Source of the DNA: a phage
Reading direction: 5' to 3' (one strand)
Sequence record: PQ536907.1
DNA length: 64,000 bases
Position numbers and translations under genes: made by a program. The notes beneath the pieces are model-generated. The model did not search any database, was not told where the DNA came from, and worked only from the letters and a program-made list of their open reading frames with translations. Below are positions 5,611 through 37,674 of the stretch, in pieces; position 1 is the first letter of the stretch, and each line of letters starts with the position of its first letter.

Positions 5611-6446
5611 TAGAATGCTCCTTGGAAAATATTATCACCACTAGTAGGTCTATTATACAAATACTCTATACCACCGGGTTTAATATAGTTCCATGTCTGA
5701 AACGGATGCGTCTGATATGGATGATATGGATTATAAGGATTAAATCCAGGAGTTCTCCAGGTAGTGTTCCAACGAAAAGAATCATTTTTAATCATCTTTT
5801 CAATTACATCTTTTATAGCTTTTTCACTATCAAAACTTTCTTTATTTTCCTTCGGTGAAAAAAGCTTATTCTCTACATCGTTCCATGTATAAACTCGCTG
5901 AGCGGTTTTTGGAATACTGTCACGTTCCCCTCGAGCCATCCAATACACAGGAACACGTAATATTTCACTCGCATGATCGCAGTGGTGAGCGAGATCGTCA
6001 ATATAACAAATTACGTTATATTTCTCTTTTGCCTTTTTGAACAACTCTTCTTTTGAAGAATCATGACCACACATCATTACTTCTGAGAAGGCACCAGGAA
6101 AAAGAGCATTCAAATTAAATTGACGATTCAACAGAGCGTCAATAGAATCACCCAATGCTGTAACAGCTACAAAATTATAATCTTCTTTTAATTTGTTAAT
6201 TACACACAGAGCATCTTTATATGGAGACAAGTAACGAATAAAATCTGATCGATTGTATTTTTCAATTAACTTGACGCCAAGTTCTTCATCACAATTAAAA
6301 AGTTTACCTGGAGAAATAAATTTTTCATCCTGGATCATTTTTAAAATATGTTCCAACGGAAGATTATATTTCTGAGCAAAATAAGGAAGGCCTGATTGCC
6401 AGCTTAAACATACTCCATCAATATCAGTTAAAATAGTAGGCTTCAT
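5610..6446 (-). CDS. HAD-superfamily hydrolase-like protein (278 aa; 30.2-like position)
   Basis: N-terminal ILTDIDGV resembles the HAD DxDG(T/V) motif I; call is motif-based only. Confidence 0.55.
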   Translation of the reverse strand: MKPTILTDIDGVCLSWQSGLPYFAQKYNLPLEHILKMIQDEKFISPGKLFNCDEELGVKLIEKYNRSDFIRYLSPYKDALCVINKLKEDYNFVAVTALGDSIDALLNRQFNLNALFPGAFSEVMMCGHDSSKEELFKKAKEKYNVICYIDDLAHHCDHASEILRVPVYWMARGERDSIPKTAQRVYTWNDVENKLFSPKENKESFDSEKAIKDVIEKMIKNDSFRWNTTWRTPGFNPYNPYHPYQTHPFQTWNYIKPGGIEYLYNRPTSGDNIFQGAF

Positions 6447-14813: not shown

Positions 14814-16401
<1,588 letters not shown>

Positions 16402-16428
16402 AATAAAATGGGCCTTGCGGCCCACTCC

Positions 16429-27115: not shown

Positions 27116-27156
27116 ATTATATACCATCCAAATCTTAAAGTAAACAAGTATAAATA
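27116..27156. promoter_or_regulatory. Back-to-back divergent promoters: rnh early promoter (minus) and gene 34 late promoter TATAAATA (plus)
   Basis: Minus strand GTTTAC (27140-27145), 16-nt spacer, TATATAAT (27116-27123); plus strand TATAAATA at 27149-27156, 35 nt before the gene 34 ATG. Confidence 0.55.
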
Positions 27157-32184: not shown

Positions 32185-32189
32185 ATTGA

Positions 32190-32213
32190 GGGAGCCTTCG
32201 GGTTCCCTTTTTC
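32190..32213 (+). terminator. Rho-independent terminator after gene 35
   Basis: Hairpin gggagcc-ttcg-ggttccc followed by TTTTTCTTT. Confidence 0.6.
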
Positions 32214-32215
32214 TT

Positions 32216-32223
32216 TATAAATA
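32216..32223 (+). promoter_or_regulatory. T4 late promoter TATAAATACTATT for gene 36
   Basis: Exact TATAAATA 24 nt upstream of the gene 36 ATG. Confidence 0.7.
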
Positions 32224-32920: not shown

Positions 32921-35900
32921 ATGGCTACTTTAAAACAAATACAATTTAAAAGAAGCAAAACCGCAGGTGCACGTCCTGCTGCTTCAGTATTAGCCGAAGG
33001 TGAATTGGCTATAAACTTAAAAGATAGAACACTTTTTACTAAAGATGATACAGGAAATATCATTGATTTAAGTATTTCCGCTGGCGGTAATATCAGTGGA
33101 AATATCACTCAAACTGGTGATTATTTACAAAATGGAACATATAATCTTAATGGAAACCAGTTTGTTTATGCTGGTAAATATATTGAATTCCTGCCTAAAA
33201 CCGCGGGTAATGGTGCTTGGGCAAACCAACATAAAAATAAAGCTCCTATCTTTACCGATTTGAGTTCAACTACTTCTACTTCAGAATACCATCCGCTAAT
33301 TAAACAACGCTATAAAGATGGAACTTTTTCTGTTGGTACGTTAGTAAATGAAGGAAGTTTTAAAATTCAATATATCAATGAATCTGGTGATTCAAAATAT
33401 TGGACTTTTAATCGAAACGGTAGTTTTATTGTAGATAATGGCAATATTAAAGTTCGTGCTGGTAATATTTCCGCTTCAGGCAATATTAATTCAGCTACTG
33501 GGATGGTTTCTGCTCCACAGATTAATACAAAAACCATAGTTTTTAATACAAAAGCATTCGGACAATATGATTCGCAGTCATTAGTTCAATATGTTTATCC
33601 TGGAACAGGTGAAACAAACGGAATCAATTACCTTCGCAAATTCCGTGCTAAATCTGGTGGTACAATTTATCATGAATTAGCTTCTGCGCAAACCGGAAAA
33701 AGTGATGAACTTTCTTGGTGGACTGGTAATACAGCGGTTAATAAACAAATGGGCCTTCGCAATGATGGGTCTTTAGTACTACGACGTTCACTTGCAATTG
33801 GTACAATTACAACAGATGAAAACATCAATAACTACGGTTCCACTGGAGCAATGGGCAAATGTTATATAGTTATCGGTGATGCATCAACGGGTTTATCATA
33901 CAAAAAAACTGGGGTATATGACTTAGTTGCTAGTGGTCTTTCTGTAGCATCTATTACTCCTGATAGTTTCCGTAGTACGCGCAAAGCGATTTTTGGACGC
34001 TCGGAAGACCAAGGTGGTACGTGGATTCTTCCTGGTCAAAACGCAGCTCTTCTTTCAGTTCATACTGAAGTTGACCAAAACAATAATGGAGATGGTCAGA
34101 CACATATTGGCTATAATAGTAATGGTAAATTTTATCATTATTTTAGAGGCAGAGGAAGAATGGCCATTGGAATGGCCGAAGGACTTATTGTTGAACCAGG
34201 AATTTTAGATATTAAAACTGGTTCAAATACATTAAGTTTGCGTGCTGATGGTACCGTCGCTTCTGTTCAAACATTAAAGCTTAATAATGGATTATATTTT
34301 AATAGTGATGGAACTAACGCTTCTCTAATTTTTAAAGCAGCTTCAGGTATTGATGGTACTAAACAAATACTTTGGGAAGGTGGTACTCGTGCTGGGCAGA
34401 ATAAGAGCTATGTAACTGCTAAAGCTTGGGGAAATTCATTTAATTCATCTGGCGATCGTAATCGTGAAACGGTTTTTGAAGTATCAGATGGACAAGGATA
34501 TTATTTTTATGCTCAACGTGTAGCTCCTGCACCAGGTTCAACAACTGGAGTAGTTCAATTTAGAGTTGCTGGAGCATTATTAACTTCTGGTGGCATTACA
34601 TCATCCGGTTCTATTGTTACTGAATCTAGTTTAGTTGCTAATAATGGATTATCTGTAAATGGTCAAGCTAAATTTGGTGGAACAGCAGATGCATTAAGAA
34701 TTTGGAATGCTGAATACGGCGCAATTTTCCGTCGTTCAGAAGCATCATTACATATTATCCCGACTCCTAAAGATGCTGGTGAAAGTGGTGGAATAAGTAA
34801 TCTCCGCCCGCTAAGTATTAGTCTTAATAATGGTATGGTACAAATGCGCCATTCTGTTACGTTAGGCGATGATGGCACTGGCGGTAATATGATTACTGTG
34901 GACAACGATAACAAACGTGTTGTTGTTGCTAGTAATAGTCGTATTGCTCCTAATTTCAGAATGCAATTAGGACAATCATCTTATATTGATGTAGAATGTA
35001 CTGATGCTGCTCGCCCAGCCGGTGCAGGTTCATTTGCATCCCAGAATGACGCAAACGTAAGAGCTCCAATTTATATGAATATAGAGCGTACTGCTGCTTC
35101 TGAATATATTCCAATTGTTAAACAGCGGTATGTAAATGGTGATAGTACTTATTCTATTGGCACCTTAATTTCTCAAGGAGACTTTCGCGTTCATTATCAC
35201 CAGGGTACTAGTACTACCGGTACTGATTTAAGCTGGGAATTCCGTCGCAATGGTGATTTCCGCGCGGCAGGTAAAATTATTGCCGGTGCTGCTACTTTTG
35301 GCACTGATGGTAATATTACTGGTGGTTCAGGAAACTTTGCCAACTTAAACAGCACAATTGAATCACTTAAAACTGATATTGTTTCAAGTTATCCTATTGG
35401 GGCTCCTATTCCATGGCCAACGGATACTCCTCCTGACGGTTACGCTATTATGGAAGGCCAGACCTTTGATAAGTCTGCGTATCCAAAGCTAGCTGTTGCA
35501 TATCCTAGTGGCGTTATTCCGGATATGCGCGGGCAAACTATTAAAGGTAAACCGAGTGGTCGTAATGTATTAAGCGCGGAAGCTGATGGTATTAAGTCTC
35601 ATACCCATGGAGCATCTGCATCCAATACAGATTTAGGTACTAAAACTACATCAAGCTTTGATTATGGCACTAAGACCTCTTCAAGTTTTGACTATGGTAC
35701 TAAAACCAGTAATACCACAGGTAACCACTCTCATACTGTAAGCGGTACTACGAGTTCTGCTGGTGCACACCAACATGCGCGCTCAGGTCCTCAGTTACAA
35801 GCCGGCATACCCAATAACATATTCTATGACGGATATAATACTGTAGGTGCAAACGCCAACGCTAAAATCACCGGATCTGTGAGCGGTGCTACTGCAGGGT

Positions 35901-36145
35901 CAAATATAGCCAAAACTTCTTCAGACGGTGCTCATACTCATACTTGGTCTGGTACTACAAGCACTACAGGTAACCATGCTCACACAGTAGGTATTGGTGC
36001 TCATACCCATACTGTAGGTATCGGTGCTCATACCCACACGGTAGCAATTGGCTCGCATGGTCATACTATCACTGTAAATAGTACAGGTAATACAGAAAAC
36101 ACGGTTAAAAACATCGCTTTTAACTATATCGTTCGTTTAGCATAA
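32921..36145 (+). CDS. 37: gp37 long tail fibre distal subunit (receptor-binding tip)
   Basis: 1074 aa; C-terminus ...[11 protein letters not shown]; His-box repeats [14 protein letters not shown]; T4-type, with the chaperone gp38 downstream. Confidence 0.9.
35597..36075 (+). repeat. His-rich repeat region of gp37 tip (HxH boxes; GTKT.SSFDY and GAHTHTVGI tandem repeats)
   Basis: Direct nucleotide and amino-acid tandem repeats in the C-terminal domain. Confidence 0.6.
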
Positions 36146-36172
36146 GGAGAGGGGCTTCGGCCCCTTCTGAAC
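36145..36172 (+). promoter_or_regulatory. Gene 38 translation-initiation region: SD AGGAGA separated from ATG by a GC hairpin (split ribosome-binding site)
   Basis: aggaga-ggggcttcggcccc-ttctgaacATG; the hairpin would bring SD and ATG to normal effective spacing. Confidence 0.5.
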
Positions 36173-36724
36173 ATGAAAATTTATCATTATTATTTTGACA
36201 CTAAAGAATTTTATAAAGAAGAAAATTATAAACCAATTAAAGGATTAGGTCTTCCTGCACATTCAACAACTAAAAAACCTTTAGAACCTAAAGAAGGATA
36301 TGCGGTTGTATTTGATGAAAGAATTCAAGATTGGATTTATGAAGAAGACCATCGCGGCAAACGAGCATGGACTTTTAATAAAGAAGAAATTTTTATAAGT
36401 GACATTGGAAGCCCGGTTGGTATAACCTTTGATGAGCCCGGCGAATTTGATATATGGACTGATGACGGTTGGAAAGAAGACGAAACATATAAACGCGTTT
36501 TAATTCGCAATAGAAAAATTGAAGAATTATACAAAGAATTCCAAGTTTTAAATAATATGATTGAAGCTTCTGTCGCGAATAAAAAGGAAAAATTCTATTA
36601 TAAAAACCTTAAGCGGTTCTTTGCTCTTTTAGAAAAGCATGAGCATTTAGGTGGTGAATTCCCTTCATGGCCTGAAAAAGAACGGAAACCTTGGTATAAG
36701 CGTTTATTCAAGCATTACGTATAA
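36173..36724 (+). CDS. 38: gp38 tail fibre assembly chaperone (T4-type)
   Basis: 183 aa, MKIYHYYFDTKEFYKEENYKPIKGLGL... matches recalled T4 gp38. Confidence 0.9.
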   Translation: MKIYHYYFDTKEFYKEENYKPIKGLGLPAHSTTKKPLEPKEGYAVVFDERIQDWIYEEDHRGKRAWTFNKEEIFISDIGSPVGITFDEPGEFDIWTDDGWKEDETYKRVLIRNRKIEELYKEFQVLNNMIEASVANKKEKFYYKNLKRFFALLEKHEHLGGEFPSWPEKERKPWYKRLFKHYV

Positions 36725-36727
36725 ATA
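36720..36727 (+). promoter_or_regulatory. T4 late promoter TATAAATA for holin gene t (overlaps gene 38 stop)
   Basis: TATAAATA 17 nt upstream of SD AAGGAGG and the t ATG. Confidence 0.6.
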
Positions 36728-36744
36728 TCTTAAAAGGAGGGTCT

Positions 36745-37401
36745 ATGGCAGCACCTAGAATATCATTTTCGCCCTCTGATATTCTATTTGGTGTTCTAGA
36801 TCGCTTGTTCAAAGATAACGCTACTGGGAAAGTTCTTGCTTCCCGGGTAGCTGTCGTAATTCTTTTATTTATGATGGCGATTGTTTGGTATAGGGGAGAT
36901 AGTTTCTTTGAGTACTATAAGCAATCAAAGTATGAAACATACAGTGAAATTATTGAAAAGGAAAGAAATGCACGCTTTGAATCTGTCGCCCTGGAACAAC
37001 TCCAGATAGTTCATATATCATCTGAGGCAGACTTTAGTGCGGTGTATTCTTTCCGCCCTAAAAACTTAAACTATTTTGTTGATATTATAGCATACGAAGG
37101 AAGATTACCTTCAACAATAACTGAAAAATCACTTGGAGGATATCCTGTTGATAAAACTATGGATGAATATATAGTTCATTTAAATGGACGTCATTATTAT
37201 TCTGACTCAAAATTTGCTTTTTTACCAACTAAAAAGCCTACTCCCGAAATAAACTACATGTACAGTTGTCCATATTTTAATTTGGATAATATCTATGCTG
37301 GAACGATAACCATGTACTGGTATAGAAATGATCATATAAGTAATGACCGCCTTGAATCAATATGCGCTCAGGCGGCCAGAATATTAGGAAGGGCTAAATA
37401 A
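36745..37401 (+). CDS. t: holin
   Basis: 218 aa; single N-terminal TM segment (VAVVILLFMMAIVWY) and large periplasmic domain; matches recalled T4 holin T. Confidence 0.9.
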   Translation: MAAPRISFSPSDILFGVLDRLFKDNATGKVLASRVAVVILLFMMAIVWYRGDSFFEYYKQSKYETYSEIIEKERNARFESVALEQLQIVHISSEADFSAVYSFRPKNLNYFVDIIAYEGRLPSTITEKSLGGYPVDKTMDEYIVHLNGRHYYSDSKFAFLPTKKPTPEINYMYSCPYFNLDNIYAGTITMYWYRNDHISNDRLESICAQAARILGRAK

Positions 37402-37674
37402 TTATTTGTTCGTATACATCTCTAGATATCGATATACACCCTCAAAACCCTCGTTGAATTCGTCGATGAGGGTTTTCTTATCTTCTTGAGTTAATTCAGA
37501 AACAATTTTACGGAATGAATTCTGATTTAATTTTCTACCTTCATGCGTTACTCCAATCTCATTCAGAAATGCAATAAAATTAGCACGATTCTCAACAATA
37601 TCTTCTCTGGAAAATTTAATCAAAATAGACGCAACAGTAATAATTTCACGAACTGTATCAATGTTTTTATTCAT
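37402..37674 (-). CDS. asiA: AsiA anti-sigma70 factor
   Basis: 90 aa, MNKNIDTVREIITVASILIKFSREDIVENRANFIAFLNEIGVT... Confidence 0.9.
   Translation of the reverse strand: MNKNIDTVREIITVASILIKFSREDIVENRANFIAFLNEIGVTHEGRKLNQNSFRKIVSELTQEDKKTLIDEFNEGFEGVYRYLEMYTNK

Follow-up and report, generated by a model that had tools for sequence, protein, structure and literature searches.

Two genes of bacteriophage T4, 38 and 25, have been described in which the Shine-Dalgarno sequence and the AUG lie too far apart and an intervening RNA structure makes the distance functional (PMC3014915). The spacing was reported to be shortened from 22 to 5 nt at gene 38 and from 27 to 11 nt at gene 25, and destabilizing mutations to lower initiation; for the mutations, the work referred to there is the gene 25 paper (Nivinskas et al., 1999, J Mol Biol 288:291; cited in PMC3014915). 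The split region of gene 25 is situated at the 26-25 junction (Malys and Nivinskas, 2009; summarized in PMC3014915), and its structure is kept among close T-even phages (PMC3014915). As at gene 38, the Shine-Dalgarno sequence is too distant from the AUG and a structure in between reduces the spacing; unlike gene 38, a different and longer structure is involved, in another gene that lies outside the stretch of DNA considered here and without sequence similarity to it. With the thrS operator of Escherichia coli (Sacerdot et al., in PMC3936740), the ribosome likewise tolerates a hairpin between two parts of its binding site, and the hairpin stays folded. However, thrS is a cellular gene, its hairpin is much larger and also binds a repressor protein, and the split falls between a standby region and the part comprising the Shine-Dalgarno sequence and AUG, whereas at gene 38 it separates the Shine-Dalgarno sequence from the AUG.

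The DNA analyzed here, referred to in its full length as the window, comprises 64,000 nt (sequence record PQ536907.1) of a T4-like phage (Tequatrovirus). Over the 37-38-t stretch, which has its genes in that order, it shares 97.8-98.0% identity with Shigella phage ESh17 and the T4-type phage TuIb, and a 171-nt piece around the 37/38 junction is 100% identical to Serratia phage PhiZZ30. An initial annotation had likened the start of gene 38 to the unusual initiation region of its T4 counterpart, and the likeness is exact: the Shine-Dalgarno sequence and hairpin are base-for-base those of resequenced T4, TAAGGAGAGGGGCTTCGGCCCCTTCT being identical in OZ209023.1 (resequenced T4) and KJ477686.1 (T4 GT7). 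The two regions have in common the gene, its position, UAAGGAGA followed by GGGGCUUCGGCCCC, and the proposed mechanism; the window differs from resequenced T4 only in two bases of the spacer (CUGAAC vs CUAAAU). The T4 reference AF158101.6 reads GGGGCTTCGGCCC, with three Cs and hence a 3' arm one C shorter, whereas OZ209023.1 and KJ477686.1 read GGGGCTTCGGCCCC, with four Cs as in the window. The three-C reading reflects either a compression artefact of the older sequencing or a real difference between strains, and because AF158101.6 has one C fewer, the published shortening from 22 to 5 nt corresponds to one from 23 to 6 nt here.

Judged by its sequence, this region of the window is orthologous to the initiation region of T4 gene 38. 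It probably represents the "split" initiation region of T4 in a close relative of that phage, with the hairpin bridging the Shine-Dalgarno sequence and the AUG. The device itself is already known from T4 gene 38 (PMC3014915), and a textbook oddity of T4 translation that is present unchanged in a T4 relative carries little weight for this window. What comparison adds is modest, namely compensation in the stem across four genera, a hairpin that pre-dates or outlives the split arrangement, and an apparently undescribed instance before denA.

Anatomy and predicted fold of the gene 37/38 junction

The features of the junction, whose full sequence is gcaTAAGGAGAGGGGCTTCGGCCCCTTCTGAACATG, are listed in Table 1. 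T4 gp38 and the gene 38 product of the window share 97.8% protein identity, and the latter also hits PHROG 105 (tail fiber assembly, E = 2e-44); searched against Pfam, it matched no family at E up to 1e-3. The C-terminal part of gp37 has matches to the Pfam families Collar and Phage_fiber. The window gp37 has 1074 aa vs 1026 aa in T4 (AF158101.6, 156542-159622), and GxHxH motifs are repeated near its C-terminus; the comparison suggests that the receptor-binding tip differs from that of T4 despite the identical 37/38 junction.

Table 1. Location of the gene 37/38 junction features, late promoter motifs and other hairpins in the window
Feature	Position	Strand	Basis
Gene 37, distal long tail fibre subunit, 1074 aa	32921..36145	+	ORF; BLAST matches annotated long tail fiber distal subunit
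Outer-helix 5' arm GUUUAG (last codons of gene 37)	36135..36140	+	Predicted with 36167-36172; optional, unproven
Gene 37 stop codon TAA	36143-36145	+	End of ORF
Shine-Dalgarno sequence UAAGGAG of gene 38	36143..36149	+	Full complement to 16S rRNA 3' end; gene 37 TAA inside
Putative bridging hairpin	36149..36166	+	Folds, pair probabilities, compensatory changes in relatives
Predicted stem extension	A36150-U36165, G36149·U36166	+	Minimum-energy fold
Hairpin core GGGGC/GCCCC	36151-36155 with 36160-36164	+	Five G-C/C-G pairs
UUCG loop of gene 38 hairpin	36156-36159	+	Sequence
Residual spacer CUGAAC, hairpin foot to start codon	36167..36172	+	Sequence
Gene 38, tail fibre assembly chaperone, 183 aa	36173..36724	+	ORF; ATG at 36173
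Gene t	36745-37401	+	ORF
Late promoter motif TATAAATA before gene 36	32216..32223	+	Motif scan; nearest upstream of gene 38
Late promoter motif TATAAATA before gene t	36720-36727	+	Motif scan
C(UUCG)G hairpin	32188-32209	+	Hairpin scan of window
C(UUCG)G hairpins	61153-61132, 50168-50151, 44888-44869, 44654-44639	-	Hairpin scan of window
C(UUCG)G hairpins	42221-42206, 8495-8474, 3700-3677	-	Hairpin scan of window
nrdB/denA junction, second site of same layout	16401-16428	-	Survey and pattern scan

The initial annotation had placed AGGAGA at 36145-36150, a 14-nt hairpin with a UUCG loop (GGGGCTTCGGCCCC) at 36151-36164, and the ATG of gene 38 at 36173-36175, 22 nt beyond AGGAGA; all three are borne out by the sequence, the stem consisting of five G-C/C-G pairs. 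The Shine-Dalgarno sequence is followed by GGGGCUUCGGCCCC (36151-36164), then by UUCUGAAC and the AUG at 36173, such that the last G of GGAG stands 23 nt from the AUG and AGGAGA 22 nt (36151-36172), with the gene 37 stop only 27 nt ahead of it. The spacer CUGAAC holds no motif resembling a Shine-Dalgarno sequence, nothing lying nearer to the gene 38 AUG than UAAGGAG, and no ATG, GTG or TTG occurs among the in-frame codons from the TAA at 36143 to the ATG at 36173. A gp37-gp38 fusion by read-through of the stop codon was considered, as the two genes share a reading frame here, with 30 nt separating stop from ATG; it was ruled out by the distances in relatives, which are 29, 30, 32 or 33 nt and do not conserve the frame.

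RNA folding predicted the stem that had been proposed between the Shine-Dalgarno sequence and the ATG. The minimum-energy fold gives a 7-bp stem that leaves 6 nt (CUGAAC) to the AUG, and the residual spacing would be 8 nt if the 5-bp core alone forms. The 18-nt hairpin has a predicted free energy of -12.5 kcal/mol (z = -3.1), equaled by no shuffle. Across three sequence contexts (88-231 nt), probabilities of the five core pairs are 0.98-0.999; those of the extension are lower, at 0.70-0.90 for A36150-U36165 and 0.30-0.75 for G36149·U36166, the latter engaging the last G of GGAG. For bases 36143-36148 of the Shine-Dalgarno sequence, a mostly unpaired state is predicted (0.69-0.97 in the two contexts with gene 37 sequence upstream; 0.41-0.99 with 36143 as the first base of the fold). 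A 6-bp outer helix, formed by 36135-36140 with 36167-36172 (GUUUAG/CUGAAC), is predicted with a probability of 0.56-0.68; in this helix the Shine-Dalgarno sequence would form a bulge, and the 3' arm would stop directly before the AUG. Pairing with GUUUAG is still possible for the T4 spacer CUAAAU and impossible for Mosigvirus-type spacers. An Rfam scan of 35900-36400 (E up to 10) returned no match at the hairpin and two chance snoRNA matches elsewhere.

Chance does not account for the hairpin arrangement at gene 38. With two or fewer mismatches allowed, the 14-mer has five matches in the window vs 0.02 expected. In a crude survey of 78 window ORFs, well-paired Shine-Dalgarno sequences were mostly 2-9 nt from the start, and a strong one at about 22 nt was found only for gene 38 (best anti-Shine-Dalgarno duplex, -9.3 kcal/mol) and denA (-8.7 kcal/mol). 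A pattern scan for a Shine-Dalgarno sequence, hairpin and ATG in that order, with no proximal Shine-Dalgarno sequence, also returned only these two genes with an ATG start. Gene 38 thus has a strong Shine-Dalgarno sequence more than 15 nt from its AUG and none nearer, and a stable stem-loop wholly between the two, with a residual spacing in the range of about 5-9 nt.

The junction in T4-type relatives and in outgroups

The 37/38 junctions of 20 T4-type records or contigs, representing 14 distinct sequences from Tequatro-, Mosig-, Dhaka- and Gaprivervirus, were compared, together with five outgroups: Citrobacter phage Moon, Yersinia phage vB_YenM_281, lambda, Klebsiella phage RCIP0034 and Erwinia phage LS-2018a. 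TAAGGAGA was unchanged in all 14 distinct junctions, whereas the preceding Ala codon varies (GCA, GCT or GCC); each of the 14 also has a hairpin and a GGAG-to-AUG distance of 22-26 nt. The hairpin is retained while the spacer ranges from 5 to 10 nt among relatives. Stems of GGGGC/GCCCC, GGGAC/GUCCC and GGGCC/GGCCC were observed, as was the intermediate GGGGC/GUCCC, and the loops were UUCG, UUAG, UUCU, UUAU and GUUA; what the relatives keep is the stem, with loops differing.

With an 18-column alignment that takes in the Moon and Yersinia hairpin copies too, 97.4% of cells were paired vs at most 76% with the 3' arm slid, and the covariation score was 0.283 vs 0.154 in shuffles. Stem pair 6-13 is GC in six sequences, AU in three, and CG and GU in one each. 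The compensatory change in the stem spans four genera and comprises few independent events (two at one pair) in closely related phages, so it is supportive rather than decisive. These results on the stem, its compensation and the invariance of the Shine-Dalgarno sequence are a new addition to the known T4 device. Wider sampling was less productive: a protein-based harvest of gene 38 loci from IMG/VR gave two loci only, and scans of IMG/VR and metagenome DNA with TTTAACTATATCGTTCG gave 41 stretches, six of them true junctions, with no new hairpin variant.

In Mosigvirus-type junctions, the stem is followed by UUUUUAUAAU. The extended stem in the window already pairs the last G of GGAG; with the U-run of the Mosigvirus-type junctions, pairing could reach deeper into the Shine-Dalgarno sequence, an effect that would be inhibitory and not helpful. 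The UUAU loop of E. coli O157 typing phages 6 and 13 makes an in-frame AUG 9 nt after GGAG and 18 nt upstream of the conserved MKLYHYYF start; this loop AUG is annotated as the gene 38 start in the records of phage 6 (RefSeq) and phage 13 (GenBank). As to annotation, the gene 38 start should not be "corrected" for want of a nearby Shine-Dalgarno sequence.

The same hairpin is found in phages that do not have the split arrangement. With T2, the junction reads TAA-A-AGAGGGC-UUCG-GCCCUCU-AAGGA-UUUUUA-AUG (6050-6090 of the T2 stretch compared): a C(UUCG)G hairpin is again present between genes 37 and 38, and the Shine-Dalgarno sequence is downstream of it at normal spacing. The coding sequences on both sides are unrelated, the T2 gene 37 end being unrelated to that of T4 and its gp38 being of the adhesin type. 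Moon carries an identical GGGGCUUCGGCCCC followed by GAGGAAACU-AUG (340-380 of the Moon stretch compared), also with the Shine-Dalgarno sequence downstream of the hairpin at normal spacing. In the 50-kb, non-T4 phage vB_YenM_281, GGGGCTTCGGCCCC flanked by AAA and a T-run follows a gp37-like gene (445-480 of the stretch compared). There is no gene 38 after it and similarity to the window ends at the end of the hairpin; with its G+C-rich stem and U-tract, this copy has the form of a plain canonical terminator. In lambda, RCIP0034 and LS-2018a, the homologous fibre and assembly genes overlap at TAATG, without a hairpin. An overlapping TAATG is a classic layout for translational coupling.

The window itself contains twelve C(UUCG)G hairpins, whose stems measure 4-10 bp, most of them just after stop codons and usually in the order stop codon, hairpin, Shine-Dalgarno sequence, AUG. 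Four of the twelve have terminator-like U-runs and two directly precede TATAAATA motifs. Intercistronic C(UUCG)G hairpins are reportedly a feature of T-even phages, an observation credited to Tuerk and colleagues in 1988; like that of gene 38, they have the same extra-stable tetraloop and are placed between genes. Unlike that of gene 38, the other copies in the window are upstream of the Shine-Dalgarno sequence or terminator-like, and the 37/38 copy shares its place between a Shine-Dalgarno sequence and the cognate AUG with just one other hairpin, the GCAA-loop one before denA. Because T2, Moon and vB_YenM_281 carry the hairpin without a split Shine-Dalgarno sequence, bridging cannot be its sole or original role. 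Most likely, the hairpin began as a general intercistronic element and, in the T4-type lineage, the Shine-Dalgarno sequence came to lie on its 5' side; the hairpin would thereby have become necessary for initiation. A residual role in stabilizing or ending the gene 37 message may persist.

Proposed bridging and its alternatives

The motif TATAAATA, which marks late promoters in T4, occurs on the + strand of the window at 27149, 32216 and 36720, and no copy was found on that strand between 32216 and 36720. Since gene 38 has no late promoter motif of its own, it would be read from a 36-37-38 polycistronic mRNA, through the hairpin. On this late mRNA, UAAGGAG would be too far from the AUG, at 23 nt, for a 30S subunit to hold both on linear RNA. 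Folding of the C(UUCG)G hairpin (36149-36166) would take 17-18 nt out of the path, and the gap would become about 6 nt (CUGAAC) plus the width of the helix foot. The 30S subunit would then bind UAAGGAG and start with the folded hairpin protruding and the AUG in the P-site. Each ribosome that terminates on gene 37 would open the 5' arm, with the hairpin refolding in its wake. The proposal of the initial annotation that the hairpin gives a functional spacing is thus supported by the predicted fold, the comparative data and, for T4, the literature (PMC3014915). That the structure enhances initiation comes from the literature on T4 (PMC3014915), and by analogy it would do the same in the window phage.

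Intrinsic terminators were defined as a G+C-rich hairpin followed directly by at least 5 U in 8 nt. The tail after the gene 38 stem is UUCUGAAC, without a terminator-like U-tract, and a terminator scan of 35500-37500 did not list the site. Termination as the main role in the window was ruled out by this missing U-tract and by the lack of a promoter for gene 38; the hairpin here would be a poor terminator, which fits a role in translation. A broader reading is that the hairpin is firstly a general T-even intercistronic C(UUCG)G element (a 3'-end stabilizer, weak terminator or insulator) and that the split Shine-Dalgarno sequence is a secondary accommodation to it. The two roles can coexist, and this reading is possible, if rather doubtful. 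It draws on the twelve hairpins of the window, mostly after stops and four with U-runs; on T2 and the distant relative Moon, which keep the hairpin with the Shine-Dalgarno sequence downstream; on vB_YenM_281, where hairpin and T-run follow a gp37-like gene with no gene 38 next; and on UUUUUAUAAU after the stem in Mosigvirus-type junctions. However, the window tail and the terminator scan speak against it, efficient termination would abolish expression of gene 38, which lacks its own promoter, and the invariant upstream TAAGGAGA and absent downstream Shine-Dalgarno sequence would be left unexplained.

Gene 38 might instead be translated mainly by termination-reinitiation from gene 37, the hairpin being irrelevant or tuning the rate. 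The gene 37 stop codon, embedded in the Shine-Dalgarno sequence and separated from the AUG by only 27 nt, would suit such coupling, as would the overlapping TAATG that joins the homologues of lambda, RCIP0034 and LS-2018a. Yet a stem with compensatory change is unexpected of an irrelevant hairpin, the literature gives the structure a function (PMC3014915), and the hairpin persists while the spacer varies from 5 to 10 nt, all of which make this explanation unlikely. Shine-Dalgarno-independent initiation through an A/U-rich spacer, with the upstream GGAG incidental, is very improbable. Most relatives do have A/U-rich spacers (e.g., UUUUUAUAAU and UAAAU), but CUGAAC in the window is not especially A/U-rich, and TAAGGAGA is invariant in 14 of 14 junctions, against a background of variation in the neighboring codon, stem, loop and spacer.

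A second site before denA

The other site recovered by the survey and pattern scan is at the nrdB/denA junction (Table 1), denA being the gene for endonuclease II. The nrdB stop codon (16428-16426, minus strand) lies inside UAAGGAG, which is followed by U-GGGCC-GCAA-GGCCC-A (a 6-bp hairpin), UUUUAUU and the denA AUG at 16401; GGAG is 23 nt from the AUG. A 61-nt denA region has a predicted free energy of -18 kcal/mol (z = -4.1), and its minimum-energy fold pairs GGAG with the U-run, so that this Shine-Dalgarno sequence may be masked. The layout is kept in five lineages (four genera and a Klebsiella phage) with quite different stems: GGGAC/GUCCC in PhAPEC2 (Mosigvirus), AGGGGC/GCCCCU in Klebsiella phage Roth51, AGGGC/GCCCU in Salmonella phage KM16 (Moonvirus) and GGGGC/GCCCC in MN04 (Dhakavirus), the stem of fPS-2 (Tequatrovirus) being identical to that of the window. 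In none of the five was a Shine-Dalgarno sequence found after the hairpin.

No description of this hairpin and Shine-Dalgarno site was found in the searchable literature, nor were relevant T4 Term-seq data. We tentatively suggest that the layout shared with gene 38, in which a stop codon inside UAAGGAG is followed by a tetraloop hairpin, a short A/U-rich spacer and the AUG, may be a recurrent, partly undescribed T-even design, and possibly a bifunctional one. In such a module, the hairpin would terminate or stabilize part of the upstream message; on read-through transcripts, its geometry would allow translation of a downstream gene required at a lower level. The gene 38 and denA cases are natural tests of the 30S subunit accommodating a hairpin between Shine-Dalgarno sequence and start codon. 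Several genome records annotate the hairpin at the denA site as a terminator.
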